The notes under the pieces: generated by a model | What the model saw: the letters and a program-made list of their open reading frames with translations, nothing else | Database searches by the model: none | Told to the model about the DNA's origin: nothing | Shown here: positions 1 through 46,433 of the stretch, one piece after another | How positions within the stretch are numbered: position 1 is the stretch's first letter | Layout: every line of letters begins with the position of its first letter | Source of the DNA: an uncultured Candidatus Saccharibacteria bacterium | Lineage (GTDB): Bacteria > Patescibacteriota > Minisyncoccia > UBA6257 > UBA11618 | DNA: 64,000 nt | Direction of reading: 5' to 3' | Assembly (NCBI GenBank): GCA_964373915.1 | Contig: CAYJWP010000002.1 | Coordinates: 4,312-68,311, forward strand | Program-made: the position numbers and the translations under genes

Positions 1-848
1 CCTCTTTTAAAACTTTTACCATTGGCTTTCCCGAAGCGGGTTTTGATGAGAGATCATTAGCCAGAACAGTGGCTCAAATTGTGGGCAGTGAACATATTGA
101 GCTGGAGATTAAGCCGGACGCGGTCGAGATGCTTCCTAAATTGATTTATCAATATGAAGAGCCCTATGCGGATTCTTCGGCTTTACCGACTTTTTATCTG
201 GCAGAATTAAGCAGAAAACAGGCAACGGTGGCTTTGAATGGCGATGGCGGGGATGAAGCTTTTGGCGGTTATAAAAGATATTATTATTGGAATTGGCTTC
301 ACTGCTTAAAGAAAGATATCTACTATGATATTGCTACAAGAAATTATTTTGGAGAGTTTTTGCGCAATAAAACTAAGTTGAAAAAGTTGGATGATGTTTT
401 TGCCTTAAGCTTTAACACTTTTCTGCCGGATGATTTATTAGTTAAGGTTGATATTGCCACAATGGCTGTTGGTATGGAGGCGCGGTCTCCTTTTCTGGAT
501 CATAGATTGCTAGAATTTTCCGCTAGTTTGCCGGCAAGTTGGAAGGTTGGCTTGTTTTCTAAAAAGAAAATTTTAAAGGATGTTTTTCGTGGGCAAATCC
601 CAAATGAGATTATGCGTGGCAAGAGAGGTTTTGAGTTGCCGGTGGATGATTGGTTTAGGAATAATCTTTACCCTTGGGCGCGAGAGATTATTTTAGGATC
701 GGGTTTTGCTCAGAGTTATTTTAAAAAATCTGCTTTGGAAAAGTTATTGGATAATCATAAAAATAATCGAAAAAATCATGGCCAAAGAATTTGGACGTTA
801 GTTTGTTTAGAGTTGTGGCGGCAGACATTTATCGCAAGTAAATTATGA
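1..848 (+). CDS. Asparagine synthetase (AsnB)-like amidotransferase, C-terminal part; gene begins upstream of the window
   Basis: The open frame continues to base 1 (in-frame FSIGFPEAGFDE upstream of the annotated GTG). DGGDEAFGGY is an AsnB-type synthetase motif. Sits in a glycan locus (PseA/WbpS-like context). Confidence 0.6.
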   Translation, partial: SFKTFTIGFPEAGFDERSLARTVAQIVGSEHIELEIKPDAVEMLPKLIYQYEEPYADSSALPTFYLAELSRKQATVALNGDGGDEAFGGYKRYYYWNWLHCLKKDIYYDIATRNYFGEFLRNKTKLKKLDDVFALSFNTFLPDDLLVKVDIATMAVGMEARSPFLDHRLLEFSASLPASWKVGLFSKKKILKDVFRGQIPNEIMRGKRGFELPVDDWFRNNLYPWAREIILGSGFAQSYFKKSALEKLLDNHKNNRKNHGQRIWTLVCLELWRQTFIASKL

Positions 849-1576
849 GAACAAAACCATCAAAAGCTTTTCTTATGGATAAGATAACAGAGATGTTGAG
901 AGAGAATCCGGCTTTGAAAATTTTGGATTTAGGATCTGGCGACTCCGGTTTTTTCGACACCATTTTTGAGAAATTTCCAGAGGTTTTTTATTGGGGCATT
1001 GAGCCTAGCGATGGAGCTGTTGTTAAAGCAAAGCTAATAGCAAAAAACTGCCCCAACGTAAGGATTATAAATGACCGAGCGCCTACCACCACTCTTATTA
1101 ATGAACGGTTTGATATCGTAGTTTCTTTGAGTGTTTTAGAGCACTTAAAAGATCCAGAGAGTTTTCTGAGTTTTTCTGCAGAAAAACTTAAAGAGGGTGG
1201 AGAAATGTTTCACCTTTATGACTTAGGACATTTTTTATATTCCTCATCTTTACGGGAAAGATTATTAGTGTGGCTTTGCCAGAAGGATTTTTTGAAAAGA
1301 TTCATTCCTGATACCAGATTTACTCGTTATATCAACCAGCAGGAAGTGGAGTCTATTTTGAAAAAAAATGGAATTAATGTTAAAAATGTGACGTATCATA
1401 ACACCCCGACTCATGTGCGATTGATTAAGTCTTTGGACGAATCTGATGTGTCGTTAAAAGCGTTAGAAATTATTGTAAAAATTGAGGCGGACGTCTCTGA
1501 AGCGATAAAGAGTTTGCCCGTGAGCGCTAGAGAAATGATTTGCCCGAGTATCTGTATCTGGGGAAGAAAATCTTAA
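845..1576 (+). CDS. Class I SAM-dependent methyltransferase
   Basis: ILDLGSGDSG (motif I) and VLEHL motifs. ATGA start/stop overlap with the upstream gene. Confidence 0.7.
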   Translation: MRTKPSKAFLMDKITEMLRENPALKILDLGSGDSGFFDTIFEKFPEVFYWGIEPSDGAVVKAKLIAKNCPNVRIINDRAPTTTLINERFDIVVSLSVLEHLKDPESFLSFSAEKLKEGGEMFHLYDLGHFLYSSSLRERLLVWLCQKDFLKRFIPDTRFTRYINQQEVESILKKNGINVKNVTYHNTPTHVRLIKSLDESDVSLKALEIIVKIEADVSEAIKSLPVSAREMICPSICIWGRKS

Positions 1577-1582
1577 CTAATT

Positions 1583-2752
1583 ATGAACAAAAAAGCGCTA
1601 GTGTTTTCTTTGGAGTATTTCCCCTATGTGGGAGGGGCGGAGATTGCCATTAGGGAAATCTGCAAAAGAATGGAGGGTTTTAATTTTGATTTGATTACCT
1701 GCCACAATGATGCTGATATTGCGGAAAATGAAATTATTGATGGGGTTAATGTTTATCGGGTTGGCGTTGGGCGAAGAGGTTGGGATAAATACTTAATGCC
1801 TATCGTCGGTTTTTTAAAGGCGTTGGAGTTAAATAAAAAAAATCATTATGACCTAATCTGGGCGGTGATGGCTAACACCGCTGGTCTGGCCGCTTTATTT
1901 TTTAAATTAACCCACGGCCGTATTCCTTATTTACTTACCTTACAGGAAGGTGACCCTTTGGAGTATTATCAGCGAAGAACTTGGTTTTGGCTGCCTTTAT
2001 TCAAGTTGATATTTAAAAAGGCTAACCACATACAAATAATCAGCCGCCATTTTGCCACTTGGCCCAAAAATTATGGTTATCAGGGAGAAGTTTCTGTTGT
2101 GCCCAACGGAGTAGATTTTAATCTTTTTAATCAGATAATTGATGAGCGACAGCTCGCTATTGTTAGGCAAAACTTGAGTTTGACTAGTGATGAAAAGATT
2201 GTTATTACCACCTCTCGTTTGGTGAAAAAAAATGGCATCAGCGACTTAATAAAAGCAGTTGGTATTTTAAAAGAAGAAAATAAGTTTATTAAATTACTTA
2301 TTATTGGCCAAGGAGAAGAGGAAAAAAGCTTACAGGATTTAGTAAATGATTTGGGATTGAGAGAAGATATATTTTTTCTGGGGCATATTAAACAGGAGAT
2401 ATTACCTGTTTATTTGAAGATAGCCGATATTTTTGTCAGGCCATCGCTTTCGGAAGGATTAGGCAATAGTTTTTTAGAGGCGATGGCGGCCGGATTGCCG
2501 ATAGTGGGAACTCCAGTAGGCGGCATCCCAGACTTTTTAATTGATAAAAAAACCGGTATTTTTTGCCAGCCGCAAAATCCTGCTTCAGTAGCTGAAGCCA
2601 TTAATTTAATTCTTAGCGATGACGGTCTTCACCTTTCTTTAATAGAGGCCGGTCGTAATCTGGTAAGAGAAAAATATAATTGGGACGACATTGCTAAAAA
2701 AATGAGAGAAATTTATGAAAATATTAATAGTGGCGGGAATATTTCCTCCTGA
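1583..2752 (+). CDS. Glycosyltransferase family 4 (GT-B)
   Basis: EGLGNSFLEAMAAGLPIVGTPVGGIPDF (E-x7-E motif). About 390 aa, typical GT4 size. Confidence 0.8.
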   Translation: MNKKALVFSLEYFPYVGGAEIAIREICKRMEGFNFDLITCHNDADIAENEIIDGVNVYRVGVGRRGWDKYLMPIVGFLKALELNKKNHYDLIWAVMANTAGLAALFFKLTHGRIPYLLTLQEGDPLEYYQRRTWFWLPLFKLIFKKANHIQIISRHFATWPKNYGYQGEVSVVPNGVDFNLFNQIIDERQLAIVRQNLSLTSDEKIVITTSRLVKKNGISDLIKAVGILKEENKFIKLLIIGQGEEEKSLQDLVNDLGLREDIFFLGHIKQEILPVYLKIADIFVRPSLSEGLGNSFLEAMAAGLPIVGTPVGGIPDFLIDKKTGIFCQPQNPASVAEAINLILSDDGLHLSLIEAGRNLVREKYNWDDIAKKMREIYENINSGGNISS

Positions 2753-3890
2753 CATTGGCGGTCCGGCGGGATATACCGAAAAAATAGTCTCAGAGTTTTT
2801 TAAGAGAGGCCACGCCGTTGCTGTTATTTGTTATTCTGACAGCAAGGCCGGTCTAGATTATCCTTATAAAGTTTCTAGAGTTTTTCGCGGAAAATTCTTT
2901 ATCAAAAGATATTTCTTATATTTTTTAACAGTTTTAAAACTAGCTAAGAATTTTGATATTATTTATTGCCAAGATTCTGTTGCCGTCGGTTTACCTTGCG
3001 TTTTTGCCAGTTTGTTTTTGAGAAAAAAATTTGTTTTGAAAATAGTCGGAGATATTTCTTGGGAATATGCCAGAAACTGGAATTTAACTGAAGATGAGAT
3101 TGATTATTTTCAAAAAAGAAAATCATATCCTTTCTTGATTAAAGTAATGAGACGAGCGCAAAAGTTTGTCTGCCAAAGAAGCAAAACGATAATCGTTCCC
3201 AGTTTTTATCTGAAAAAAATTGTTGAAGGTTGGGGCATAACCTCAGAAAAAATAAAAGTTATTTATAACGCGGTTGAGCCCATAATTATAGAAAAAAGCA
3301 GAGAAGAGTTGAGAAATAATTTTGGTTTTTCCGGCAGTAAAATAATTCTATCCGTAGGCAGGCTCGTTTCTTGGAAGGGGTTTGAAGATTTAATTGCAAT
3401 GATGCCGGAATTAATAAAAAAGGAGACTGGGGCGAAATTGGTTATTATAGGCGATGGGCCGCAGAGGAACGGTCTAATTGATTTAATTAAAAAATTTAAT
3501 CTTGAAAAAGAAGTTGTTTTAGTTGGAAGATTATCGCGACAAAAAGTCGGGGAGTATCTCAAAGCCGCCGACGTTTTTGTTCTTAATAGCAGTTATGAAG
3601 GTTTGCCGCATATAGTTTTGGAGGCAATGTCTGTCGGTTGTCCGGTGATGGCTAGCAAAGCCGGAGGCAATATTGAAGTAGTGGAAGATGAAGTGAGTGG
3701 GTTTTTAATAAAAGAAAATAACTTAGACGATTGGCGGCTGAAAATTTTGAATTTGCTTTCAGACGATATTTTGAGAGAAAAGTTTATTAAAAACGGCCAT
3801 CAAAAACTAGAAGGATTTTCTTTTGAAAAGATGATAAGCAGAACATTGCAGACGTTAAGCGTTTTTAATAATAGTTTTAACCGCAGTTAA
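2715..3890 (+). CDS. Glycosyltransferase family 4 (GT-B)
   Basis: N-terminus MKILIVAGIFPPDIGGPAGY. EGLPHIVLEAMSVGCPVMASKAGG motif. Confidence 0.8.
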   Translation: MKILIVAGIFPPDIGGPAGYTEKIVSEFFKRGHAVAVICYSDSKAGLDYPYKVSRVFRGKFFIKRYFLYFLTVLKLAKNFDIIYCQDSVAVGLPCVFASLFLRKKFVLKIVGDISWEYARNWNLTEDEIDYFQKRKSYPFLIKVMRRAQKFVCQRSKTIIVPSFYLKKIVEGWGITSEKIKVIYNAVEPIIIEKSREELRNNFGFSGSKIILSVGRLVSWKGFEDLIAMMPELIKKETGAKLVIIGDGPQRNGLIDLIKKFNLEKEVVLVGRLSRQKVGEYLKAADVFVLNSSYEGLPHIVLEAMSVGCPVMASKAGGNIEVVEDEVSGFLIKENNLDDWRLKILNLLSDDILREKFIKNGHQKLEGFSFEKMISRTLQTLSVFNNSFNRS

Positions 3891-5039
3891 AAGATTCTTT
3901 TTGTGGTTAATTAAAATTGTTTTGCACCCGGCTTGTCTTCCCGCTTCCATGTCGGTATCGCAGTTGCCGACAAAAAAAGTATCGTTTAAATTAATGCGAT
4001 GATCTTTGGCGGCTTGATAAATCAATCCCGGCTGGGGTTTACGGCAGAAACAACTATCCCCTAAGTGGGGGCAATAGTAGATGCCCGAAATTTTCGCTCC
4101 GTTTTTTTCTAATTCTGCAACCATATTTTTGTGGATAATATTCAGGTCATTTTTGGTCATTATTTTTTTAGCGATGCCTCTTTGGTTTGTTATTACCAGA
4201 ATTTTATATTTTTTTTTCGTTAGCAATCTTAAGGCGGTTATCGCTTTGGGAGCAAATTCAAACTGATTCCACTTTTTAACATACTCTCCGGGAATTTCTT
4301 TATTAATCACCCCGTCGCGATCAAGGAGAATGGTTTTTTGTCCAAAATGGCCTTGAGCTTTTTTATAATCAGCTGGCGTGCCGATATCTATAAAATAACC
4401 ATTGGAAATAAAACCAAAAAGGCCGATGCGGGAGTGGTATTTTTCTAAAAAATCCTTTTCTATGGAAAATTTTTCTGGCAAATCAAAGCCGGAAAATATC
4501 TTTTTATTTATAAGATAAACACCTCCATTGATTAGTCCTTGTGCTCTATGCGTTTTCTCCTCAAAATTGATAATGCGATTGTTTTTATCTAATAAGACGT
4601 TGCCATAACGACTGGGCTTAATAATGTTTTTTAAGGCGACAGCAAAATTCGCTTTCTTCTTAAGATAAAATTTGTGAAATTCTGCTAAATCAACATCAAA
4701 AAATGTATCGCCATTAATAACAAAAACTTCATTTATTGATACGTGAGGCAAGGAAAGCTTGATTGAACCGCCTGTTTCTGGCGGTTCAGGATGATAAACA
4801 TAATTGATGTCAAGCTGTTTGTAGCGATTACCGAAGCGTCTCTTAACAAGATCAGACTTATAGCTGACAAAAAGATGGACTTTTTTTATTTTGAAAGAAA
4901 GCAGGTAGTCTAGAAGATATTCTAAAAAAGGCCGCTGATTGACTGGGGCTAGGGGCTTGGGAATTTCCCCTATGACTTTTTGTAAACGCGTGCCATAACC
5001 GCCCGCAAGAACAATCGCTTCTTTAATCATATTGTCCAA
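3855..5039 (-). CDS. Bifunctional sugar-1-phosphate nucleotidyltransferase (HddC-like) / D,D-heptose-1,7-bisphosphate phosphatase (GmhB, HAD family)
   Basis: N-terminus LAGGYGTRL (NTP-transferase G-loop). C-terminus LLDRDGVIN (HAD motif I) and CFCRKPQPGLI (GmhB Zn-binding motif). The two domains are fused in one ORF. Confidence 0.7.
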   Translation of the reverse strand: MDNMIKEAIVLAGGYGTRLQKVIGEIPKPLAPVNQRPFLEYLLDYLLSFKIKKVHLFVSYKSDLVKRRFGNRYKQLDINYVYHPEPPETGGSIKLSLPHVSINEVFVINGDTFFDVDLAEFHKFYLKKKANFAVALKNIIKPSRYGNVLLDKNNRIINFEEKTHRAQGLINGGVYLINKKIFSGFDLPEKFSIEKDFLEKYHSRIGLFGFISNGYFIDIGTPADYKKAQGHFGQKTILLDRDGVINKEIPGEYVKKWNQFEFAPKAITALRLLTKKKYKILVITNQRGIAKKIMTKNDLNIIHKNMVAELEKNGAKISGIYYCPHLGDSCFCRKPQPGLIYQAAKDHRINLNDTFFVGNCDTDMEAGRQAGCKTILINHKKNLLTAVKTIIKNA

Positions 5040-6091
5040 ATTTCCAAACCGCCTTGAGTGAAGTGGTATTTATGAGTGATGCCACCGAATTTTTCCAGTT
5101 CTTTAATCACTTTAAATTTATTATTTTCCGGGCAGTAAAATATCATAAATCCTCCACCGCCGGCTCCCGATATTTTTCCTCCGCTAGCTCCCGCTTTAAT
5201 GGCCGATTGGTAAATATTATCAATGAGATCGCTGGTCATGTTGTCGGCTATTTTTTTCTTGTTTTGCCAGCCAAAATCCAATATTTTGCCCATCTCGTCC
5301 AGATTACCTCTAAGCAGGGCCTCTTTCATAAGAAGGGCCTGTTCCTTAAGTTTGTGAGTAGCTTCAATGTGAGACGCCTTATTTTCTTGGATGTGTTGAG
5401 CCTGATTCTGTATAATTTGCGATGAGACGCGATTTTTTTGGGTGTAATAAAGCACAAGGCGGAATTCCAGCTCATTAAGCGAATGTTGTTTAATGCGCAG
5501 AGGATTAATAATCACTTTTCCGTCTCGGTGGAATTCCATAAAGTTCACTCCTCCGAATGTCGCCGAGTATTGGTCTTGTTTGCCGCCGACCATTTTTAAG
5601 TCAACTCTTTCTATTTCATGGGCTATTTGGGCGATATCATATTCTCCTAGAGGCAATTTTAACCATTCAACGAAAACTCCGACGATAGCCACCACTAAAG
5701 CTGATGAGGTGCCCAAGCCGGAGCCTATCGGGGCTTCTACGAAGGTGCTTAATTCAAAAGACAGCGGCTTTTTAATAAATTTTTCTATTATTTTATTATA
5801 AGTTCCCTTATGAAGAGGAAAGTAACCATCAATGATTAATCTTTCTTGGCTTACTAGTTCACAACTTTTTTGAGTATCAACGGAATTAAGGATAATTTTA
5901 TTGTCTGAACGCGGTTTGAGAGTAGTGTAGACATAAAGATTGATGGTGGCATTGAGGACGGCTCCGCCGTATAAGTCGGAATATGGGCTGACATCCGTGC
6001 CGCCTCCCGCCAGGCCTAATCTTAATGGAACTCGGCTTCGGTAGAGCATTTTATCTAAGGCTAGTATAACAGGTTTTTTCATGTTATCCAT
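5027..6091 (-). CDS. hddA: GHMP-family sugar kinase, D-glycero-D-manno-heptose 7-phosphate kinase (HddA)-like
   Basis: PIGSGLGTSSALVVAIVG GHMP ATP-binding motif. Adjacent to the HddC/GmhB fusion. Confidence 0.65.
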   Translation of the reverse strand: MDNMKKPVILALDKMLYRSRVPLRLGLAGGGTDVSPYSDLYGGAVLNATINLYVYTTLKPRSDNKIILNSVDTQKSCELVSQERLIIDGYFPLHKGTYNKIIEKFIKKPLSFELSTFVEAPIGSGLGTSSALVVAIVGVFVEWLKLPLGEYDIAQIAHEIERVDLKMVGGKQDQYSATFGGVNFMEFHRDGKVIINPLRIKQHSLNELEFRLVLYYTQKNRVSSQIIQNQAQHIQENKASHIEATHKLKEQALLMKEALLRGNLDEMGKILDFGWQNKKKIADNMTSDLIDNIYQSAIKAGASGGKISGAGGGGFMIFYCPENNKFKVIKELEKFGGITHKYHFTQGGLEIWTI

Positions 6092-6103: not shown

Positions 6104-7219
6104 ATGAATTTATTAATGGTCAGCGGCAATGACCGTTTGGCGACAGGTTTAAGAAGCGGTAATTTTTATAATAATCTTTTACGTTTTAGTCACTCCTTTG
6201 AACGCGTGGACGTTGTTTGTCCTTTTGTAAGCGATGCTTCGGCCGCTACTATCGGCGATAGTATCTTTTTACATGTCTTAAAACGCGGTTTATTATTTCA
6301 GTTTTTTTTTGCATATAAGGAAATCATGAGATTATGTTCACAGCACAAGCCAAAATTAATCGTTGCTCATGCTTATGGGCTACAGTTTATGCTTTTTGGC
6401 GCTTGGTTGGCCAGTAAAAAAACAGGCGTTCCTTTAGCGGTAGAAGTCCATCATATTGAGGGTTATCCGCGGGCGGCAACTTTTAAAGATTGGCTCATGA
6501 AGGTAATCACCTTTACTCTACTGCGTTTGATTAAAAACGACATTAAAATATTTAGAGTGGTGAACAAGGCGGAAGCTTTACCATTATTGTTGTCATTAGG
6601 CATTCCTGAAGAAAAGATAAAAATACTTTATAGCATGTATTTAGACAGGAGTATTTTTTATCCTGCGGTTAAAGAGCCGAAAGAATTTGATCTTATATTT
6701 GTTGGGAGGTTGATAGCCAATAAAGGATTATGGCTTTTTTTGGATGCTTTTGATATTGCTAAGAAAAAAATGCCTCTCATAAAACTGGCAATAGTTGGCG
6801 ATGGGCCTCTAAAGGAGCGTTTGGTTTCGCTAATAGGTAGCCGATTAGATATTTATTTTACTGGCATTCTTGCTCCTGAAGAGGTTGCTGATATGTATCG
6901 TCGGTCAAGGGCGGTTATTTGCACATCATTTGCCGAGGGGGGCCCTCTCTTTGTGGTTGAGGGGATGGCCTGTGGTTTGCCGGCGATTTCAACGCCGGTG
7001 GGTTTAATGAAAGAAATTATAGAAAATGGCAAAAACGGATTTTTAGTTGAGAGTTGGGATGCTGCTAAAATAGCCGAAGTTATTGTGAAAATATTGTCTG
7101 ATGATGAATTAAGAAGAAATTGTTCTTTGGCGGCGGTTGCGACAGCGGCGCGTTTTGATTATGAAAAAATAATCAATGATTATGTCGGAACTTATAAGGA
7201 TTTAGCCGTTGGTTTATGA
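6104..7219 (+). CDS. Glycosyltransferase family 4 (GT-B)
   Basis: EGGPLFVVEGMACGLPAISTPVG motif. Start uncertain: the divergent gap to hddA is only about 12 nt. Confidence 0.7.
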   Translation: MNLLMVSGNDRLATGLRSGNFYNNLLRFSHSFERVDVVCPFVSDASAATIGDSIFLHVLKRGLLFQFFFAYKEIMRLCSQHKPKLIVAHAYGLQFMLFGAWLASKKTGVPLAVEVHHIEGYPRAATFKDWLMKVITFTLLRLIKNDIKIFRVVNKAEALPLLLSLGIPEEKIKILYSMYLDRSIFYPAVKEPKEFDLIFVGRLIANKGLWLFLDAFDIAKKKMPLIKLAIVGDGPLKERLVSLIGSRLDIYFTGILAPEEVADMYRRSRAVICTSFAEGGPLFVVEGMACGLPAISTPVGLMKEIIENGKNGFLVESWDAAKIAEVIVKILSDDELRRNCSLAAVATAARFDYEKIINDYVGTYKDLAVGL

Positions 7220-10203: not shown

Positions 10204-10237
10204 ATTTTTTTAGTTGTCTATAATTAGACTCAAGTTA

Positions 10238-37402: not shown

Positions 37403-37457
37403 TGTTTCGTGGAGTATATTATATTGATAGTTCTTTTACAAGGAAATTTGTCATTAA

Positions 37458-37649
37458 TCATTCATTAGTAATAGTAATTAAAAAGGAAAGATATAAAACA
37501 ATAAAGAGACTGACTGTGAGTCGATAGTTATAGCCCATAGCTTGAAAAATATCAATGATAATTTTTGTTGACTTTTGTTCAAATAAAGACCAGCTTAAGG
37601 CAATGACTAAAGCCCAAATTATTACTTTGAAATTTTTATTTGGCGGCAT
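37458..37649 (-). CDS. Small single-pass membrane protein (hypothetical)
   Basis: 63 aa with one hydrophobic helix. Sits in-operon between the two large membrane protein genes. Confidence 0.3.
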   Translation of the reverse strand: MPPNKNFKVIIWALVIALSWSLFEQKSTKIIIDIFQAMGYNYRLTVSLFIVLYLSFLITITNE

Positions 37650-39444
37650 AGAAAATAAAATTAGGGGTTTCTCTTTGTTTTGAAAAATAATCCACTATTC
37701 CGCGCAAATTCTCCATCTTAGTATTTTTACCTGTTACAAGAAGGTCAATATTTAAGTTATGAAAATAGTCTGCTTTATCAGAAATCCGATTGCTAACCAG
37801 GCAATTGTAATAATCAAAGCAATCTTTATTGATGGTAAAAATTTGCTGAGGAGCGAAAGCGGCCTGAAGGTAGGGCAGGGGAATCCCCTCAACAATCATT
37901 AAAGTATTCTCCTTGCTATTTTTAATTATTTTCTGTTTTTCAAGCATTAATTCATTGAGGATTTGTCGGTAAGTTATTGATTTAGCGGCAGTATTAGAGT
38001 CTTTATACAAATCCGAGAATAAGGATTCGTGTTGTTTCATAATATAAACAAGGAGGGTGGGTAGTGTTATCGTTATTAAGAAACAAACCATTACTTTCCC
38101 AACAGTTTTAGAAATAAATTTTTCTATTATTTTAACCAAAAAAGCAAAAGGTAATAAAGATAAAATGGATAAACTTGGATAGAGGAATAGAAAATATCTG
38201 AATTTCTGCCAAGTAGCTTTAATAGCATGATATGGTATTAGCGGCGCCAAGAGAAGGAGATAAAATAAAATAAAAATTATTCCTAACATAAATGCCGGTA
38301 GTCTTTTTTTTGATATTATGCCGTGAGTTAAAACTATAATAAAACCGATGACCGCTAGCCAAATTATTATTTCTGAATAAGAATTAATGTAAGGTTGGCT
38401 GAAAAGGTTGTGGGGTCTTATATATTCTTCGTAACCATCTATTGTACTAGGAGGGAAATAGGAGATTAATCCAAGGGCAAAAAGAAAGTATCGGACAAGA
38501 AAAATAATCGTAGGCGGAATAGTTAAAGCAGACACAATTTTAAAATTATTAGTTTTAACACCAACCTCCGTTAATCCGATAAGACTTATCATTCCGATAG
38601 CAATAATAAACATCACAAAGGAGCCAATGTTGGTTAAGTAAAACATAAAAAGAAACGGCACAACGAACTTCCAAGAATTTTTTATTAGTAGCAAGCCGGC
38701 AATAAATAAAAAAATTCCCAAATTTTGAGGAACAATTACGGCATAGAGCAGATAGTAATTTATCCAGTAAAAAATAAAGATAATTGGTGGTGCTAAAAGG
38801 GCTAATGACGGTATGGGTAATATTGATCGTGCTAATTGGAAAACAGCTAGAGCGATTAATAAATATTGGAAATAACTCCATGTAGCAATAAAAAATTGGT
38901 AAGAATCGATATCTTCGTTAATAAAAGCCAGGTATGGGGAGATGATAAAGATGAATCCCGGACTTTGGGCGCTTAATAATTTTAAAAACTGTGGACTTAT
39001 TTCTTGAGGTTGACCGATGAAAGATTTAGCAAGCGCTACCCAATAATATTGGTCGGTAGACTGGTTGAAATAAGTATATCCCGTTCCTATGATTTGAATC
39101 GAAATTAAAGCTATGAGTACGATTGTGAATATAATAAATGCAAAATCATGAAATGATGGACGGATTATTTTCCAACGCAAATCTATTTTTATTAAAACTG
39201 CTAATAAGAAAACAACAGAAATAAAAATTATTATAGAACGAAAGTCAAATCTAGTTATCGTATTGATGAAGACGCTTATGGGAGTGGCTATAACTTGAAA
39301 GAAAAAGCCAAAAATTGCAATGTAAAGTAGTAATTTGACTAGATTAACTTCTTTTTTAAGAAAAATAAGACTAAGGAATAATCCCGGCAGTAAAAAAGTA
39401 ATAAAAAAAGGCGGAAAAAAAGACTCTACTAGAAAATCAGCCAT
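37636..39444 (-). CDS. Large polytopic membrane protein (candidate Wzy_C-family polymerase/ligase/O-OTase or GT-C); paralog of 34906-36822
   Basis: 602 aa, at least 12 TM helices, C-terminal soluble domain. Shares the FFPPFFITFLLPG N-terminus. Confidence 0.45.
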   Translation of the reverse strand: MADFLVESFFPPFFITFLLPGLFLSLIFLKKEVNLVKLLLYIAIFGFFFQVIATPISVFINTITRFDFRSIIIFISVVFLLAVLIKIDLRWKIIRPSFHDFAFIIFTIVLIALISIQIIGTGYTYFNQSTDQYYWVALAKSFIGQPQEISPQFLKLLSAQSPGFIFIISPYLAFINEDIDSYQFFIATWSYFQYLLIALAVFQLARSILPIPSLALLAPPIIFIFYWINYYLLYAVIVPQNLGIFLFIAGLLLIKNSWKFVVPFLFMFYLTNIGSFVMFIIAIGMISLIGLTEVGVKTNNFKIVSALTIPPTIIFLVRYFLFALGLISYFPPSTIDGYEEYIRPHNLFSQPYINSYSEIIIWLAVIGFIIVLTHGIISKKRLPAFMLGIIFILFYLLLLAPLIPYHAIKATWQKFRYFLFLYPSLSILSLLPFAFLVKIIEKFISKTVGKVMVCFLITITLPTLLVYIMKQHESLFSDLYKDSNTAAKSITYRQILNELMLEKQKIIKNSKENTLMIVEGIPLPYLQAAFAPQQIFTINKDCFDYYNCLVSNRISDKADYFHNLNIDLLVTGKNTKMENLRGIVDYFSKQRETPNFIFYAAK

Positions 39445-39461
39445 TAAGAGAAAATACCAAT

Positions 39462-39498
39462 AAAAAACACCTCCGCCAAGACCGGAGGTGTTTTTTTA
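39462..39498 (-). terminator. Rho-independent terminator (bidirectional hairpin) immediately downstream of the giant surface protein gene
   Basis: aaaaaacacctccg-ccaagac-cggaggtgttttttt: a perfect 10-bp GC-containing stem flanked by an A-run and a T-run. Confidence 0.7.
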
Positions 39499-39512
39499 TT
39501 CAACTTCAGATA

Positions 39513-42500
39513 CTAATAGACCGTCATTAATTCTGATAGGCGCAATTGAATCTTCTTAATAGTGGCTTGAATCAGTCCGATGAGCAGGTTCTTGACGGCG
39601 GCTTGAGCAGAGCTCTTAACTTCGGCGGTGATGGCATTTCCTTTGGCAAGTTCGCTGATTGCCTTAACAACTTTGGTTACTTCAGCGGTGAGGTCGGTGA
39701 CGCTCATAGAGCCATACTTGTTTGCGGAAGTTGAAGCAACGCTTGCAATATCAGCTTTGGAGCTGTCGATGGCACCGGTCGCCATGTCGGCCTGCGCCAC
39801 CTTGGCGGCTACTTCAGTAGGGATGGTTGCCGCGGGAGCAACAATAACCGGTCCAGTGATTAATCCGCCGCCTCCACCTCCGCCGCTATTTGTTTTAGCA
39901 GAGACTTTGGTAGTGATAGCGGCGGATTCTCCAGAATTATTCAGAGCGGATAAAGTGTAGTAATAGGTCGTGCCAGAATTTAATCCTGTATTGGAATAAG
40001 TACTGACATCGCCAACCGTCGGGTCGCTGCCTACCCTGGGAAAGTCGGCTATTGCCAAGCTGTTGTTGGTGGTGCGGTAAATATTGTAACCGGTGGCGCC
40101 GCTTGACTTTGTCCAAGCAAGATTAATTTGAGAGCCGCTGATAACGGTAGCTGTCAGGCCGGTCGGGGTGGATGGAGCGTCGGCGGCGGCAACAGTCGGG
40201 GCAAAATCGGAAAAGCTGTCAGTCTTGGCGATTAGAAGGTGTTTGTCTGTTCCATTGGCATCTTTAACGAAAGTGGTGGCTAGGTCTTCCCAAGCGCCCA
40301 AATCATTAAGTTTAGAGATTCTAACCTTGTCTCCAGCCGCCAGAATCTGGGCCGCTGTGGAGGTAGCAAACCCCGCGGTTGCCAGATCGGCTGTGGTGAT
40401 AGGAAGCTTCACAATGCCGGTGGCGTCGTGCACTTCTTTGCCAGAGGAATTTGTTGGGGTGATGCTGTATCCAGTGGTTCCGACAACTTTAGACTCCGAT
40501 GTGCTAAAGGCAATCTGGGGCGCCTTTTTCATCTCTAATGTTCCGGAGGTGCTGTCGTTAGCATCGGTAACATCCAATTCTACCGCTAATCCGGCGATAT
40601 TATCATCAATAATGGTGCCCCCGACTGATGGGATAAATGATTTCTTAGTGGTGGTGGCAGAAGAGAAGCCGGGGATACTGGTATCAATGTTTAAGGTGGG
40701 CGAGGAGTTGGCTATATTGTTAGCCGCAACAACAACTGTTGCCGGTGTGCCATCTTGGCGTCCATCATCGCTCTTTACCTCCACTGTCCATGTGCCTGCC
40801 GGCAGAGACATTGAGGCGTTGGCGGTGCTGGTAGCGGTTCTATCAATATCATCAAAGATAACCTTGCCGTCACTGGCTCTGGTAGCGATAACTTTAGCCT
40901 CACCGCCATAATTAGTAGTACTGGAACCTTCTTTAACGGTGATAGAAACATTATCCGCAGAGTTCTGGGCTAAGGACCTCTTGGTTAGTGTGGTATCGGC
41001 TGATACTACCAAAGTTTCTGGCCTGCCGGTAGAGTTGGTGTTGTCTGTAAAACCAGACTTTAGCGACTGAACTGAATAGGTGCCAGCTGGTAAGCTGACA
41101 GAAACGTTAGTGTTGGCGCCGGTTGCTCCGGAAGTGGTGACAAAAGACTTTCTGCCATTGGATTGGTCGGAAAAGACAACGGTAGCTCCCTGGATATTAG
41201 TTCCGGTGGAGTCCTCAATTTCTCCAGTAACAGTGTAGAGAGTGGGAACCACGGATGTTTTATCAATACTGTTAGTCTGTCCGGCAGTGACGACGGTTGA
41301 GGAGGAGAATATTTGGCCGATGCCTTCATTGTTGCACTGGACATTATAGGTGCCAGCGGGAACTTTTAAGCTTAAAGATGATCCTTCATATTTAGCAAAA
41401 GCCCCTCTGCCGCTGGAATCAACTGCGCTGCAGAAAGCACTGGTAACAGTGGCTCCTAAAATCACTGTAACGGTGCCAGGATTACCGACGGCTAGAGTGG
41501 TGTCTGTTGTGGCCCCGCTGGTCACAGCGACTCCTGTTTGCTGGGCCAGCGGACCGGCCCCGGGCAGATTACCATCACAGGTGTAAGTGCCGGTTTTCAT
41601 AGTCAGAGTGACCGTACCATCGGTGCCAGTTTTGCCATGATTGCCGCCGTTTGGTCCATAGCATCCCACAAAAGCTCCTTCAACCGCTGTGCCGCCTTTT
41701 GTAGCCGTTATCTTTACTTTTCCGAAATCAGCGGCGGTGACGGCAATGTTTTGGCCAGTTTTGCTGGTGCCACTCATAGTTATTATTTTACAACCGACTT
41801 CACCGTAAGCCGGAGCAAATCCTGCTAATCTCCACGTGGTTGCGCCGCTTTCATAACCGGGAGGCATATACACGGTGTAGTTACCGTTGGAGTCGGTGGG
41901 GGAGCCGGCAAACCCTCCGGTAGGAGTGAAGTTGGAGCAAGTGTCCCCTGAGGTAACCCTCTGGGCGTCAACGAAGCCATACTTGAGACTATTGCCATTT
42001 TCATCTTGCAATTGGCCGGCTATAGTGACACCGCTCTTGGCTAATTTAATTGTTAGTCCATCTCCTGTGAGAAGGGTGCCGTCTTTGTAAACATCTGCGG
42101 CGGTGTTGCCGTCAGTATTAGAAGAATTAGCTTTAACATCAACGACATTGTCGCCGCTGCAAGGCATGCCGGGAGAACAGGCGGTAACCCTATAGGTACC
42201 GGTAGTGATTTTAAGAACGGCCGTGCCATCAGATTTTGTTTGAGCAAAACTTCCCATCATCTCCACCAAGGCTCCGGTGGAAGAATCAACGCCTTTGCCG
42301 CCTATAGGGAAGGCATCAACATAAACATTAGCAATGCCGGTGGCGCCGTCAGTAACTTTAATTTTAATTTCTTGGTCGGTGGTTTTGAGGGCAAAGGCAA
42401 TGCTTAAATCGGCGCTGGCAACCGCTACTGTTTTAGGTGGCGGGGGCATGAATGTGAATATGGGAACCGGAGGTGGACCGCCATTGTTGAAAGATTCAAA

Positions 42501-45500
42501 AGCAATGTGGGGACCCACAGAACATTGGTATGTGGTATTGGGTTGGAGCTTTATGGTAACGGCGGCCGCTCCACTGCCGTCGGTAGTGCCCTTCTTAACA
42601 ATCGGAGCGGAGAACTGGAAATCAAAGCCTCCGGCGGAACAGAAGACATCAAAATCTGTGGCGGCCGGACCACCGGTAACATTTACTGTCAGAGTTTTAC
42701 CGGTGGTACTCAAATCAACCATTTTAAAATCAATATCTGTCTTATTGCTGTTACTGATATTAACCTGTTTAAATTGTCCGCCACCGCCAAGATTGCCTAA
42801 AGCCGTTGCGTCTTGGCCAAAACTTAACATTACTCCATAGTCGCCGTTATTTAGACTGCCGAATGAATAATCACCGTTGGCGTCGGTTTTTGTCTCAAAA
42901 CGTCCCATGCCCATAAAGGAATCAAGGAAGACTGTTACGCCAGCAATACCGGTATCACCCTCAGCGCAAGCTCCACCGGAAGTTGATGATTTACAAACTG
43001 TTCCAGAAATGGTGCGGCTACCGGCAGTAAGAATATCAAAAGGGGCAAAGTTAACAGTTTGCCCTACTTTTGTTCCGTTAGCGTCTTTTACTATAGCGGT
43101 CACACTTTTTTCTCCGGCGGTGGCAGGATTTTTAATGCCTTTTAACTCAAACATAAGCTGATCTCCTGGAAGCATTACGCTGCCAGTGTGGGTTAGTGTA
43201 ACAGTAAATGTTCTAGCGGCCGCATTGGTTGAGGTAGCGGTAATCGTGGTTGTGCCGGGACCCCAGCCATTGACGTCCTTGTTATCCCATGATTCGGTTG
43301 CTGGAACGACGTTAGCGTTAGTCAGGTCAAATCCAGTAGGAAAAGTGAAAATTACTTGGGCCCCGGTGGTAAGAGCGGCTGGCGCAGGAAATTCACAGCG
43401 GAACTTTCCTGTTTGTTCGGGCAAACGGTTATAAGGGTCACACCTTTCCGGACTTGTCCAGAAATTACCGAAGTTTTTTTGGTCAAAGGTTGGCATATCG
43501 AAACCGCCAAAAGTTCCTCCTTTAGAAGCATCAAAAACAGTACCGCGTCCGAAATCACCAGCACCGGGCACGATTGAGAGCGAGCCGCTGGATTCTTTAA
43601 CATTTTTAACAGTAACCTTAAATTCGGTATTGGGCTGGAAACTTAAACCAGTAACCTCAACAGCCCTGGCTTCGGGACGGGCAGAAAAGGTAGCGCTATT
43701 TAGGTCTATTTTAGTGCCAATGGGATTTTCTACCGTGTAATTTTGCTTATTAATGGCGCCGAATGGACCACCGGTGAAATCAACCGATTGGTCAAATTCA
43801 ATCCACATTCTGTAAGTATCAGCGTCAGCGAACATAACTGTCGGCGCTGTGGCGGTGAAGGCGGCGTCAACAGTGGTGAAACAACTGGTGGCATCTGAAG
43901 CAAAGGCGTTGCCCGTTACATCTTTAACGCCGGTGGTTGCCTTAACACAATATTTGGTGTTTTGGTCTAAGAGCATTTGCAGTCCGACATTAGCGCCAAA
44001 AGATGTTGGGTTGTATTTGAGATTGGCTGTTATAGCCGTCTCGGCTCCGTTGAGCGTTCCACTGGCGTCAGAGTCTTTCCAGAAGATTATGTTACTGGCA
44101 GTCAATGTGGTAGGATCTATAGCTTCGGAGAATTGGGCGAAAATGGAAGGAATGTTCCTTGCTACGCCGGTGGCGTTGGTCTTAGGGTCAACAGAAGTTA
44201 CAGTTGGCGCAGTGACATCAGCGGTGGCGCCAGTGGTGAAGAATAAAATATAGTCTGCCGTTCCGGTTCCGCCAAAACCTAAGCCAGCAACATTAACAAC
44301 ATTTTTCTTAATAGTAAGAACATGTGCTTGATTAGCGGCTAGATTAGCAGCCGGGTCTATTTTTAATAACTTATTAGTAGCGTCCCAAGTTAGGGTGGCA
44401 GCAAGGGCGCTTCCTGACGGAGAGCCAAGAGCGGCTGCTTGGAGGAGGACATTATTGGCGTTGTTAATAGCGTTAGCCGTGCCGTCAGCTAACATATTGC
44501 CAGAATCGCCAGCGGTAAATTGGATATATAAATTGCCGTTGGGAGAAAAACTGGCAGAACCGCTAGACGGAGCGGTGCTTTCTATAGCGGGGGGCAGTTT
44601 AACGTTGGTGGGGTCGTTGGAGCTGGTGCTAAAAGAAATGGTTGAGGTGGCGGCTAGGGCGTTACCGGCCAGGTCTTTAAGGCCGGTGCCGATAGTGACT
44701 ACATAAGTAGAGTTGGGAAGCAGATTAGCTGGAGCGTTATCAAGGCGCAAAGCGGCGCTATTAATAGCGGCGCCTAAGGAGGCAAAGTGGAAGTCATAAC
44801 CGCTTAGGTTGCCCAACGCGCCAGCAGTAGCATGGCCGAAGACGATGTCGCCATCAGACAGGACTGTGGAGTCGGTTACGGCGCCTTGGGCAACCGGTGT
44901 TAACTTACTCATTTGAGTGTTAGCTGCCACACGCGAGTTGGCTGCGGTTTTGCCATCTACAGTGGCAGTTCCTTCAGTGGAATCAGAGGACATATCGCCG
45001 GCGCCTGTCACTATATGCCAGCCATAGCCAGTAGCGCCTGTTAATTGGGCATAAACCATATCACCAACGGAAACCGCCAGAGTTCCGCCGTTAGTAGCGC
45101 CGTTATCGGTAGCGGTAGCGGACGGGGTAATAGCAGAAAAACTGGAACCGGTGCTGAAAGTAGGAGCGGCGCTGCCAACTCCGCTAACACTGGCTAATCT
45201 CAAATCAGCGTTATTAACAGCGGCGCCGGCAGTAGCGATAGCCCAACCATAAGTGTCCCAATTGTTGGAACTAGTGTCGGGATTGGCGCTGGAACTAACT
45301 AAAAGAATATCACCGGTAGAAATGCTTGTAGTTCCGGTGACAACACCGGTGGCATTAGGAGTGGCAATTTTAATTACTCTTTGAGGGCCGTAGAGAGGGA
45401 AATTATTAACAGCGAAGGTGCCGCCTGTCTTAGTGGCGTTAGTTACAATACCGATTTCAGCGGGCATATTTTCATGCTGAAAGAGTACTATATCACCGGC

Positions 45501-46433
45501 GGCGAAAGTGGCGTTGCAGTCAAAGCCGACCGCTATATTATGTTGAAAGTTGGCGAAGCAGTTGGTAGGGCTCCATGGTTTGCTCCAGCGGGTGGAGGCG
45601 GCCCATGCGGGGGCGCCCCCCGACGGCACCAGGTCAAAACCGTTGGGAAAGCGTTTTAAACTAAAAGGCACAGCGGAAGCGCTTCTAGTAAAGGTAATAT
45701 TTGCTGGATTAATCGTTGTCGGATCCATATCGCTGGCGTCAGTGAAATTGGCGTTAAAGAAGGAGCCAAGAGGAACATTGGTATCGCCATTTTTAGGAAA
45801 GGTGCTGGCAGTGTTGAGAACAGGAGCTGTGTTATCAACCACGTGGCTGGTTGTTCCGGTAAGAGCGGTGGTGGTTATAGCAGAGCCGGTTACGGTGATA
45901 CCGTTAGTGGCGACATCCATTTTAAATTTACGGCCTTCGGTAGGGCTTGCCGCTAAAGTGCCCACTACAAAATAAGTGGTGGCGCTGGCTGATCCTGACA
46001 GAGCGTTAGTGCCCGTGGTGATGGTGGTTGCGCTACCGACATTGACAGTGGTCTGGGTGCCGAGCAATGTATCAGTGCCGGCAGAGAATATTCCGTCGCC
46101 ATTGTCTTTGTAAACAGATAAGCTGGCAAAATCGGCGGCTGTAATAGCGGGGGAACCTGCGATGACAGTTACCGCAACGCTGTCTAATGTGTCATCAGAG
46201 ACAGCGTCAGCGTCTTTGAGGCCGAATTTAACGACCGCAAATACGGCGGCCGATTTATGTCCGACTGCTGGGCGAAATTCAACATCCGCCGGCTGGGCGG
46301 TAACGGTTGCGTTACCAGTGGCGGCTTTTGCCGGTAGCAGATAAGCGGTAAGACTTAATAAAAAAATGACAGCGAAAATTGCTGTCCGAACAACCGACCT
46401 ATTATAAAAACGACCGATAAAACTATTTTCCAT
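39513..46433 (-). CDS. Giant secreted surface protein (2306 aa), Thr/Gly/Ala/Ser-rich, with Ig-like/FN3/carboxypeptidase-regulatory-like repeats; candidate S-layer or surface glycoprotein
   Basis: Signal peptide (MENSF...LLPAKA|ATG). FN3-like segment PSTPTGLTATVISGSQINLAWTKSSGATGYNIYRT...TYYYTLSALNNSGES. CarboxypepD_reg-like segment TISGTVCKSS...KTDANGDYSF. GGGGGGG linker. Amphipathic C-terminal tail. Confidence 0.8.
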   Translation of the reverse strand: MENSFIGRFYNRSVVRTAIFAVIFLLSLTAYLLPAKAATGNATVTAQPADVEFRPAVGHKSAAVFAVVKFGLKDADAVSDDTLDSVAVTVIAGSPAITAADFASLSVYKDNGDGIFSAGTDTLLGTQTTVNVGSATTITTGTNALSGSASATTYFVVGTLAASPTEGRKFKMDVATNGITVTGSAITTTALTGTTSHVVDNTAPVLNTASTFPKNGDTNVPLGSFFNANFTDASDMDPTTINPANITFTRSASAVPFSLKRFPNGFDLVPSGGAPAWAASTRWSKPWSPTNCFANFQHNIAVGFDCNATFAAGDIVLFQHENMPAEIGIVTNATKTGGTFAVNNFPLYGPQRVIKIATPNATGVVTGTTSISTGDILLVSSSANPDTSSNNWDTYGWAIATAGAAVNNADLRLASVSGVGSAAPTFSTGSSFSAITPSATATDNGATNGGTLAVSVGDMVYAQLTGATGYGWHIVTGAGDMSSDSTEGTATVDGKTAANSRVAANTQMSKLTPVAQGAVTDSTVLSDGDIVFGHATAGALGNLSGYDFHFASLGAAINSAALRLDNAPANLLPNSTYVVTIGTGLKDLAGNALAATSTISFSTSSNDPTNVKLPPAIESTAPSSGSASFSPNGNLYIQFTAGDSGNMLADGTANAINNANNVLLQAAALGSPSGSALAATLTWDATNKLLKIDPAANLAANQAHVLTIKKNVVNVAGLGFGGTGTADYILFFTTGATADVTAPTVTSVDPKTNATGVARNIPSIFAQFSEAIDPTTLTASNIIFWKDSDASGTLNGAETAITANLKYNPTSFGANVGLQMLLDQNTKYCVKATTGVKDVTGNAFASDATSCFTTVDAAFTATAPTVMFADADTYRMWIEFDQSVDFTGGPFGAINKQNYTVENPIGTKIDLNSATFSARPEARAVEVTGLSFQPNTEFKVTVKNVKESSGSLSIVPGAGDFGRGTVFDASKGGTFGGFDMPTFDQKNFGNFWTSPERCDPYNRLPEQTGKFRCEFPAPAALTTGAQVIFTFPTGFDLTNANVVPATESWDNKDVNGWGPGTTTITATSTNAAARTFTVTLTHTGSVMLPGDQLMFELKGIKNPATAGEKSVTAIVKDANGTKVGQTVNFAPFDILTAGSRTISGTVCKSSTSGGACAEGDTGIAGVTVFLDSFMGMGRFETKTDANGDYSFGSLNNGDYGVMLSFGQDATALGNLGGGGQFKQVNISNSNKTDIDFKMVDLSTTGKTLTVNVTGGPAATDFDVFCSAGGFDFQFSAPIVKKGTTDGSGAAAVTIKLQPNTTYQCSVGPHIAFESFNNGGPPPVPIFTFMPPPPKTVAVASADLSIAFALKTTDQEIKIKVTDGATGIANVYVDAFPIGGKGVDSSTGALVEMMGSFAQTKSDGTAVLKITTGTYRVTACSPGMPCSGDNVVDVKANSSNTDGNTAADVYKDGTLLTGDGLTIKLAKSGVTIAGQLQDENGNSLKYGFVDAQRVTSGDTCSNFTPTGGFAGSPTDSNGNYTVYMPPGYESGATTWRLAGFAPAYGEVGCKIITMSGTSKTGQNIAVTAADFGKVKITATKGGTAVEGAFVGCYGPNGGNHGKTGTDGTVTLTMKTGTYTCDGNLPGAGPLAQQTGVAVTSGATTDTTLAVGNPGTVTVILGATVTSAFCSAVDSSGRGAFAKYEGSSLSLKVPAGTYNVQCNNEGIGQIFSSSTVVTAGQTNSIDKTSVVPTLYTVTGEIEDSTGTNIQGATVVFSDQSNGRKSFVTTSGATGANTNVSVSLPAGTYSVQSLKSGFTDNTNSTGRPETLVVSADTTLTKRSLAQNSADNVSITVKEGSSTTNYGGEAKVIATRASDGKVIFDDIDRTATSTANASMSLPAGTWTVEVKSDDGRQDGTPATVVVAANNIANSSPTLNIDTSIPGFSSATTTKKSFIPSVGGTIIDDNIAGLAVELDVTDANDSTSGTLEMKKAPQIAFSTSESKVVGTTGYSITPTNSSGKEVHDATGIVKLPITTADLATAGFATSTAAQILAAGDKVRISKLNDLGAWEDLATTFVKDANGTDKHLLIAKTDSFSDFAPTVAAADAPSTPTGLTATVISGSQINLAWTKSSGATGYNIYRTTNNSLAIADFPRVGSDPTVGDVSTYSNTGLNSGTTYYYTLSALNNSGESAAITTKVSAKTNSGGGGGGGLITGPVIVAPAATIPTEVAAKVAQADMATGAIDSSKADIASVASTSANKYGSMSVTDLTAEVTKVVKAISELAKGNAITAEVKSSAQAAVKNLLIGLIQATIKKIQLRLSELMTVY

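Follow-up and report, generated by a model that had tools for sequence, protein, structure and literature searches.

The window analyzed here is the whole 64,000-nucleotide stretch of contig CAYJWP010000002.1, from an uncultured bacterium of the Patescibacteria, or Candidate Phyla Radiation (CPR). Judged by its gene content, positions 1 to 39444 of the window are a composite low-GC surface-glycan island in which several sugar-donor pathways are combined, and directly next to it lies the gene of a 2306-aa secreted protein, called the giant protein below. Our subjects are a conserved four-gene cassette at this end of the island, which includes a predicted membrane glycosyltransferase of the GT-C fold from a rare family, and the relation of the island to the giant gene. 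CPR bacteria are tiny, mostly uncultured episymbionts that are believed to attach to their hosts through the cell surface. With typical genome sizes of only about 1 Mb in this group, the roughly 40 kb that go into a single surface glycan speak for its importance.

A low-GC island with a conserved GT-C cassette

The listing of open reading frames (ORFs), together with Pfam and NCBIfam scans of all ORFs of at least 180 aa in the low-GC part and of two smaller ones, gave about 37 contiguous genes of glycan biosynthesis at positions 1 to 39444. The island is longer than 39.4 kb, since the window edge cuts its first gene, that of an AsnB-like amidotransferase. The GC content was about 35%, with dense gene packing, at 1 to 39.5 kb and 45 to 51% from 39.5 kb onward, and the GC content at third codon positions (GC3) was 0.336 ± 0.036 in the 37 island genes and 0.472 ± 0.068 in 15 core genes on the right-hand side of the giant gene. 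With 0.470, the giant gene had the core value and not the island value; therefore, the compositional step sits in the 68-bp spacer (39444-39513) that holds the giant-gene terminator. The last six island genes (33172-39444) are on the minus strand, and the other 31 (69-33201) are mostly on the plus strand and converge on this block. Scans for tRNA and Rfam RNAs found none in the window. The features at the boundary are as follows, where L numbers denote loci found in the searches described below.

33172-34449, minus: Wzx-type flippase (Polysacc_synt / Polysacc_synt_3), cassette member 4, position conserved in L052-L058
34436-34903, minus: 155-aa small membrane protein, cassette member 3, position conserved in L053-L057
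34906-36822, minus: 638-aa GT-C protein, cassette member 2, the widely conserved copy, which most foreign loci match best
36806-37402, minus: membrane-anchored discoidin (F5/8 type C) protein b, cassette member 1 (F5_F8_type_C 4e-10)
37636-39444, minus: 602-aa GT-C protein, paralog of the cassette GT-C
39496-39462, minus: intrinsic terminator of the giant gene, with a 14-bp stem and a T-run (-22.6 kcal/mol; z -5.0), the strongest in the region
39513-46433, minus: 2306-aa secreted giant surface protein (Pfam Big_5 three times, SdrD_B, CarboxypepD_reg, and fn3)

The 602- and 638-aa proteins are 34% identical to each other and have few relatives. An exhaustive HMMER profile search of 1.84 billion (1.84e9) representative proteins returned only 24, and a word-indexed homolog search with the 602-aa protein returned only the protein itself. 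No Pfam match was found in 17 members, STT3 (PF02516) included, and no NCBIfam match or PDB match by sequence or profile was found for the family. The nearest structural neighbors of the 602-aa protein had STT3B (18.7), AglB (17.1), PglB (16.7), Pmt2 (16.3), and Pmt4 (15.9) at the top, followed by ALG12 (15.5), AftD (14.4), AftA (14.3), ArnT (14.2), and DPY19 (14.2), and this places the family in the GT-C fold. In an alignment of the 17 members, an aspartate in the first large outer loop (D131) and one arginine (R416) are invariant. By a positive-inside reading of the model the D131 loop would be extracellular, as expected for a GT-C catalytic loop, so that the predicted structure combines a GT-C fold with an acidic outer-loop residue, as in oligosaccharyltransferases (OSTs). 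The family differs from STT3, AglB, and PglB (GT66) in that there is no sequence relationship to them and in having three extra N-terminal helices; moreover, none of the 17 members has a WWDYG-type motif (no WW[DE] or W.D[YFW]G), and partner subunits such as the discoidin protein and the 155-aa protein are not known for OSTs. What is new in the island is this rare GT-C family, with an OST-like fold and without the sequence signature or motif of STT3, PglB, or AglB. In the literature collection searched, no relevant paper on S-layer glycosylation or oligosaccharyltransferases in CPR bacteria was found.

Eight metagenomic loci, found with an alignment of eight closer family sequences as query, carry relatives of the 602/638-aa family. 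The order discoidin, GT-C, 155-aa protein, and Wzx, as well as the strand, is kept in L052-L058 wherever flanks exist and equals that of the window from 37402 to 33172, and a discoidin gene lies directly upstream of the GT-C gene in L052-L057 and L059. The 155-aa protein had no significant family match, its one NCBIfam match (E 0.003) being far below the cut-off. These loci also contain genes for methyltransferases, NeuB-like and cytidylyltransferase proteins, short-chain dehydrogenases/reductases (SDRs), and GT4 glycosyltransferases; scans of two of them added a sulfotransferase, a DegT aminotransferase, a PMT_2 GT-C, and a GtrA-fused oxidoreductase, and one of the loci abuts gyrB. Because the GT-C is constantly coupled to Wzx, its donor is suggested to be a flipped polyprenyl-diphosphate oligosaccharide, and the protein would stand at the point where Wzy, WaaL, or PglL act classically. 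In contrast, the mycobacterial AftA, AftD, and Emb enzymes use a monophosphate-linked single-sugar donor, and the lectin module of the island GT-C is, differently from theirs, a separate membrane-anchored discoidin protein. Most foreign copies fit the 638-aa protein best, and at two positions that are otherwise conserved the 602-aa protein has residues unlike those of its family (N272, His in 88% of members, and Q533, Arg in 82%). It is therefore probably a lineage-specific, perhaps recent duplicate, possibly with an altered function.

The giant gene and the lack of synteny with glycan loci

The sequence-only reading of this DNA had proposed that the giant protein is the O-glycosylation target of the island. 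Its description of a 2306-aa signal-peptide protein rich in Thr, Ser, Gly, and Ala was confirmed: a Sec signal peptide (...LLPAKA/A) is readable, and T, A, G, and S make up 13.4, 12.4, 10.5, and 9.0% of the residues. The protein also has a linker rich in Gly and, as its tail, a helical stretch of about 150 aa. The terminator that it had placed directly after the gene is the strong one listed above. The statement that the giant gene lies immediately upstream on the same strand is correct for the last six island genes, the 602-aa GT-C gene beginning 18 bases past the terminator, but not for most of the other 31. Within the giant protein, Thr and Ser occur throughout the immunoglobulin (Ig)-like domains and are not packed in mucin-like linkers, and N-X-S/T sequons are at chance level (29 observed versus 30.4 expected; z -0.3).

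The giant family has about 16 full-length homologs of 1,900 to 2,600 aa (P0001-P0016; 31 to 53% identity), conserved from about residue 200 to 2080. These are collinear except for their C termini, which are swapped: about half of the members have PG_binding_1, and the rest have SH3 or other modules. The helical tail is common to the window protein and its closest relative, P0002. The giant protein is a secreted surface protein with a probable wall anchor, and its gene has a terminated transcript of its own. A role as an S-layer protein would be consistent with the signal peptide, the Big_5 domains (SbsA-type Ig), the single-gene unit with a strong terminator, and the PG_binding_1 or SH3 anchors of its homologs; no SLH domain was detected.

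A genome scan found 42 giant-family loci in metagenome-assembled genomes of Kaiser-, Doudna-, Uhr-, Colwell-, Vogel-, and Peregrinibacteria and of other Patescibacteria. All 37 island proteins were searched with tblastn against the flanks of all giant-family loci; at least 5 kb of flank was available on one side in 33 of the 42 genome loci and on both sides in 17, for a total of 528 kb. Nothing was found in 37 of the 42. The exceptions were a single SDR in L029 and in L003/L037 (at the same place), a GT4 in L012, and an SDR plus a GT4 at a distance of 6 to 8 kb in L045. Across the 42 genome loci and 7 metagenomic contexts, no homolog had an adjacent glycan locus, the maximum being GT4 plus SDR. 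The seven homologs with existing annotations had housekeeping or uncharacterized genes on both sides, in one case ribosomal protein operons.

In L010, whose giant homolog is the nearest one in the genome loci (57%), a small multidrug resistance (SMR) gene (48% identical to 12907-13245 of the window) and an unrelated polysaccharide deacetylase (17455-18738 of L010) converge on the giant gene and are followed by DUF5674; the upstream side has a MacB/HlyD transporter and not TruB, and the contig ends 2.9 kb after the giant gene. In the protein search the closest homolog was P0002 on L006 (53%), which is followed by an unrelated 323-aa gene. Even these closest two relatives (53 to 57% identity) share neither flank. 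Genes of 584, 671, and 323 aa near giant homologs (in L001, L002, and L006) were considered as relatives of the 602-aa protein, and comparison showed that none was related. Conversely, the eight cassette loci had no giant homolog within 10 kb.

Since there was no synteny, the GC3 values do not match, and a terminator stands at the boundary, the adjacency of island and giant gene is not evidence for a functional link; it looks specific to this genome and incidental. The sequence-only reading was to fall if giant homologs never lay beside glycan loci, and that is essentially what the 42 loci and 7 contexts gave. Its claim of the giant protein as target was therefore not upheld, in view of homolog loci without a glycan locus, cassette loci without a giant homolog, the GC3 mismatch, and the terminator. 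A glycosylation island is plausible in general terms; the comparative data do not support the giant protein as its target. A big surface-protein gene beside a glycan locus should not lead to an inference of glycosylation without comparative support, and the value of the island lies in the new GT-C cassette and not in its adjacency to the giant gene.

Donor, transferase, and modification genes

The remainder of the island contains the following features. NDP stands for nucleoside diphosphate.

69-848, plus: AsnB-like amidotransferase, C-terminal part, cut by the window start (Pfam Asn_synthase 6.9e-58, profile positions 66-353)
845-1576, plus: S-adenosylmethionine-dependent methyltransferase 1 (Methyltransf_23/12/11)
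1583-2752 and 2715-3890, plus: two GT4 (Glycos_transf_1 3e-44 and 4e-47, plus Glyco_transf_4)
3855-5039 and 5027-6091, minus: HddC-GmhB fusion and HddA kinase, GDP-D-glycero-D-manno-heptose-type module
6104-7219 and 7216-8307, plus: two GT4 (Glycos_transf_1)
8279-9028, plus: methyltransferase 2, Methyltransf_24 / CmcI-like sugar O-methyltransferase (Pfam)
8965-10203, plus: GT4 (Pfam)
10214-10786, plus: membrane-anchored discoidin (F5/8 type C) protein a (F5_F8_type_C 3e-11), convergent with the 718-aa GT-C gene
10747-12903, minus: 718-aa GT-C protein, PMT_2/ArnT-like, with a PA14 domain in an outer loop
12907-13245, plus: SMR/ArnE-F-like four-helix transporter, candidate polyprenyl-phosphate-sugar flippase (EamA / Multi_Drug_Res, ArnF 1e-6; all weak)
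13252-14130, plus: methyltransferase 3 (Pfam)
14133-15152, plus: extended-SDR NDP-sugar epimerase/dehydratase (Epimerase 6e-47; best NCBIfam match LegB-like, below the cut-off)
15157-15894, plus: GT2 polyprenyl-phosphate-sugar synthase-like protein (Glycos_transf_2; best NCBIfam matches AglJ, dolichyl-phosphate hexose transferase, and PpgS; ArnC weaker)
15891-17054, plus: sixth GT4, with 49 to 52% identical homologs in cassette loci L054 and L057
17008-18030, plus: 340-aa protein, no Pfam or NCBIfam match
18027-19379, plus: BFO_1060-type (TagB-like GT-B) transferase a (NCBIfam NF046086 1e-25, 90.7 bits versus a 200-bit cut-off)
19399-20211 and 20144-21151, plus: formyltransferase-fold protein (Formyl_trans_N 2e-14) and polysaccharide deacetylase-fold protein (Polysacc_deac_1 5e-14)
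21151-26521, mixed strands: CMP-nonulosonate module of five genes
21151-22464, plus: cytidylyltransferase-methyltransferase fusion of this module
22461-23294, plus: NeuB-like synthase, short at 277 aa (Pfam 6e-52; NCBIfam 191 bits, below the cut-off)
23186-24442, plus: NeuC (TIGR03568 378 bits, above the 236-bit cut-off)
24452-25822, plus: BFO_1060/TagF-like transferase b (38 bits versus the 200-bit BFO_1060 cut-off)
25802-26521, minus: second cytidylyltransferase of the CMP-nonulosonate module
26986-27822, plus: classical SDR oxidoreductase (adh_short_C2), 55% identical homolog in cassette locus L052
27860-31070, plus: NDP-polyol cassette of FGGY xylulokinase-like kinase (FGGY_N/C), NTP-transferase (NTP_transf_3), and iron-containing alcohol dehydrogenase (Fe-ADH)
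31071-32276, minus: TagF/TarF-like polyol-phosphate transferase (Glyphos_transf 6e-66)
32275-33201, plus: methyltransferase 5 (Methyltransf_23 1e-25), 45 to 46% identical homologs in L052 and L053

Much of what the sequence-only reading had said of these genes stood. The contiguous glycan locus of about 39 kb runs from the window start to 39444 and is cut at its left edge, and the five methyltransferases (starts 845, 8279, 13252, and 32275, plus the fused domain in 21151-22464), the AsnB-like amidotransferase, and the Wzx flippase were all found by Pfam. The best NCBIfam match of the amidotransferase, below the cut-off, was to an XrtA/PEP-CTERM exopolysaccharide amidotransferase. Six GT4 genes (starts 1583, 2715, 6104, 7216, 8965, and 15891) were found instead of the at least seven that had been counted. 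The CMP-nonulosonate module was recovered as described, with NeuC above its cut-off, a short NeuB, the cytidylyltransferase-methyltransferase fusion, a second cytidylyltransferase, and an SDR; the two CTP_transf_3 enzymes are PseF-like (119 and 165 bits), and by sequence the set for a CMP-nonulosonic (sialic-acid-type) acid appears complete, with NeuC-type epimerase, NeuB-type synthase, and CMP-synthetase. The candidate ligases and polymerases are the GT-C enzymes, with STT3, AglB, PglB, and PMT as nearest structural neighbors and no Wzy_C-type or LytR-CpsA-Psr (LCP) match.

Other claims held in part. For the GDP-D,D-heptose module, HddA (419 bits; cut-off 600) and the fused HddC (223; 300) and GmhB (148; 178) were the best NCBIfam matches, but all were below equivalog cut-offs and no GmhA was present in the window. 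The polyol cassette has its FGGY, NTP-transferase, and Fe-ADH genes and one clear TagF, but the other two of the three supposed TagF-like transferases are nearer to BFO_1060. The BFO_1060-family TagB-like GT-B of Tannerella forsythia is needed for the terminal pseudaminic or legionaminic acid derivative on the S-layer O-glycan (PMC5420450). Because the pair flanks the nonulosonate module of the island, a nonulosonate-transferase role is the better guess for both BFO_1060-type genes.

The reported Arn-like lipid-linked amino-sugar genes have the Arn architecture, namely, a GT2, an SMR-type flippase, and a GT-C, the same three-part arrangement as in ArnC/ArnEF/ArnT, GtrABC, CsbB/GtcA/YfhO, and Ppm1/Pmt. 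The amino sugar is unsupported because the window has no ArnB/DegT aminotransferase, and since ArnB and ArnD are both missing, this is not the 4-amino-4-deoxy-L-arabinose pathway. No DegT or other aminotransferase was found in the island; the formyltransferase and the SDR match ArnA weakly (1e-10 and 1e-13), the deacetylase is PgaB-like and not ArnD, and the GT2 is nearer to AglJ and dolichyl-phosphate-hexose synthases than to ArnC. Pfam PMT_2 (PF13231) was matched by five of seven relatives of the 718-aa GT-C, the window protein itself being below threshold, and the family has both PMT_2 and PA14 matches. PDB sequence searches with the 602- and 718-aa proteins gave nothing useful beyond the PA14 insert, via the family profile, and the two proteins have no detectable sequence relation, though both are of the GT-C fold. 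The three-part set differs from PMT/ArnT (GT39/GT83) systems in the PA14 domain of the outer loop and in its discoidin partner, and the set is conserved in L009, where genes for a discoidin protein, a GT2, GT4s, and an SDR likewise accompany a homolog of the 718-aa GT-C.

Small discoidin proteins pair with two unrelated GT-C families (PMT_2-like and 600-aa) both here and in L009 and L052-L059; the two in the island (a and b) are 30% identical. This suggests that discoidin proteins are a recurring lectin subunit for extracytoplasmic glycosyltransferases.

The called TTG starts of NeuC (23186-24442) and Fe-ADH (30000-31070) are probably too far upstream, because the first residues covered by their family matches are 37 and 45, respectively. 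Internal Met codons near 23291 and 30102 fit better, and with them the overlaps with the preceding genes would vanish.

A probable Wzx-dependent glycan and its possible acceptors

The explanation that we favor, and regard as likely, is a Wzx-dependent surface-glycan island with a new GT-C family acting outside the cell and with the giant gene as a core-genome neighbor. A GDP-heptose-type sugar, a CMP-nonulosonic acid, and an NDP-polyol phosphate would serve as cytoplasmic donors, from which about 10 cytoplasmic transferases (six GT4, two BFO_1060-type, one TagF-like, and possibly the GT2) would build a large oligosaccharide on a polyprenyl carrier, to be heavily modified there by the five methyltransferases and the amidotransferase. 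Wzx would move the oligosaccharide to the membrane's outer face, where the 638-aa GT-C and its 602-aa duplicate would transfer and/or polymerize it together with the discoidin (lectin-like) and 155-aa proteins. A separate system, consisting of the GT2 synthase, the SMR-type flippase, and the 718-aa GT-C (PA14) with its own discoidin protein, would add a side-branch sugar outside. The giant gene would belong to the core genome and be transcriptionally insulated from the island. What the data show are the family and fold assignments, the conserved cassette, the absence of synteny, and the compositional step; we infer the order of these steps, the en-bloc transfer, and the acceptor. For the latter, an envelope glycopolymer or lipid has about an even chance and surface proteins a slightly smaller one, the giant protein among them being an unlikely choice, and any other acceptor has a slim chance. 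Should the GT-C prove to be an en-bloc transferase or a polymerase, it would represent a new solution for the last step of surface-glycan assembly and a handle on the CPR envelope.

Several observations weigh against this explanation. The pathway is incomplete as seen, because GmhA (SIS domain), an initiating phosphoglycosyltransferase, a sugar aminotransferase, and an LCP ligase were not detected in the window; of the 72.7-kb contig, a maximum of about 8.7 kb, including the left end of the island, lies outside it. The sugar identities are provisional, since most enzyme matches are below NCBIfam equivalog cut-offs. Low GC content is frequent in glycan loci and alone is no proof of horizontal origin. 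The activity, donor, and acceptor of the 602/638-aa family are predictions from sequence and fold model, and the fold match would be compatible with single-sugar transfer, en-bloc transfer, or polymerization alike. Finally, L010 may point to a weak local glycan association in the nearest giant relatives.

The island might instead be a dedicated S-layer or surface-glycoprotein locus in which OST/PMT-like GT-Cs put the glycan on the 2306-aa protein. A CPR cell has to attach its glycan somewhere, and a dominant surface protein, here secreted and Thr/Ser-rich, is a reasonable a priori candidate. Moreover, the 602-aa gene, an apparent lineage-specific duplicate, lies beside the giant gene, 18 bases from the terminator and on the same strand, and its structural neighbors STT3B, AglB, PglB, Pmt2, and Pmt4 glycosylate proteins. 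The GDP-D,D-heptose pathway (hddA/hddC/gmhB) is known from the S-layer glycan (slg) cluster of Aneurinibacillus. The nonulosonate cap, the BFO_1060-type enzymes, the many methyltransferases, and the roughly 10 transferases are reminiscent of the S-layer O-glycan of Tannerella (PMC5420450), in whose locus a CMP-nonulosonate module is likewise flanked by BFO_1060-family transferases and methyltransferases. However, the island BFO_1060 matches are far below the cut-off (91 and 38 versus 200 bits), the nonulosonate genes are NeuC/NeuB-type and not Pse/Leg-type, the host is a monoderm-like CPR bacterium, and the final transferase is the new GT-C and not the Bacteroidetes system. With the slg clusters of Firmicutes (Geobacillus, Paenibacillus, and Aneurinibacillus) the window shares a large glycan locus near a big secreted surface-protein gene, but that linkage is not conserved in the giant family. 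In the slg comparison suggested by the sequence-only reading, a WsaB/WsfB-type (Wzy_C) O-oligosaccharyltransferase, a WsaP (WbaP-type) initiator, and SLH domains were not detected, Wzy_C and Bac_transf having no Pfam match among island ORFs of at least 180 aa, and PglL-type enzymes were likewise absent among the scanned ORFs. The giant-family loci (42 plus 7) without glycan neighbors, the cassette loci without a giant homolog, the core GC3 of the giant gene, the strong terminator, the sequons without enrichment, and the placement of Thr/Ser in Ig-like domains all speak against protein glycosylation of this kind, and the lectin-type module (discoidin or PA14) associated with each of the three island GT-Cs suits glycan acceptors at least equally. 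We therefore consider the giant protein unlikely to be the glycan acceptor and a dedicated locus of this kind equally doubtful. A more specific version, in which the cassette is a previously undescribed bacterial OST system, OST-like in structure but without sequence relation to PglB and PglL, that transfers a flipped, nonulosonate-capped glycan en bloc onto CPR surface proteins and the duplicated 602-aa copy was recruited for the giant protein, appears less probable still.

A stronger competitor, although somewhat short of an even chance, is that the island makes a free or a wall- or membrane-linked anionic glycopolymer (teichoic-acid-like, secondary cell wall polymer [SCWP]-like, or capsule), maybe the ligand of the giant tail. 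The TagF/TarF-like transferase with its NDP-polyol cassette and the presence of Wzx are consistent with this, the GT-Cs carry or pair with carbohydrate-binding modules (PA14 and discoidin) like Emb/AftD-type builders, and AftA, AftD, and ArnT are among the strong structural neighbors. Furthermore, the giant family swaps wall-binding C termini, in place of which the window protein and its closest relative have the helical tail; SLH-SCWP and CWB2-PSII are pairs in Firmicutes where a wall polymer holds a protein anchor module. That the tail might bind the polymer is conjecture by analogy, however, and TagO/TagA, the TagGH ABC transporter, an LCP ligase, Wzy, and a chain-length regulator were not detected in the window. 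Of the wall teichoic acid pathway, the island has only the TagF/TarF-like enzyme and polyol activation, with Wzx instead of TagGH, and the pathway as a whole was not recovered. The many methyltransferases and a nonulosonate cap are also more in keeping with an oligosaccharide of fixed length that ends in a cap than with a long polymer. It is very improbable that the 602/638-aa proteins are transporters or scaffolds with a GT-C-like helical bundle and not transferases: their lack of Pfam, NCBIfam, and PDB sequence matches would allow it, but the outer-loop Asp and the Arg are invariant, and the genes are always in glycan loci beside Wzx.

Outside the island, four tandem genes at 50185-53446 (minus strand; 259, 208, 329, and 283 aa) encode Cys-rich, partly Pro-rich proteins that are secreted or membrane-anchored, with coiled-coil-like C-terminal tails and no Pfam match. 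In the core region at 58219-63554, a putative CHASE2-domain nucleotide cyclase (from a reading of the sequence) lies beside a FecR-domain protein (Pfam). A likely polyamine pair is formed by a saccharopine-dehydrogenase-like gene at 61797-62960 (Pfam) and a gene at 63000-63554 that reads as a pyruvoyl-type arginine decarboxylase-like protein.

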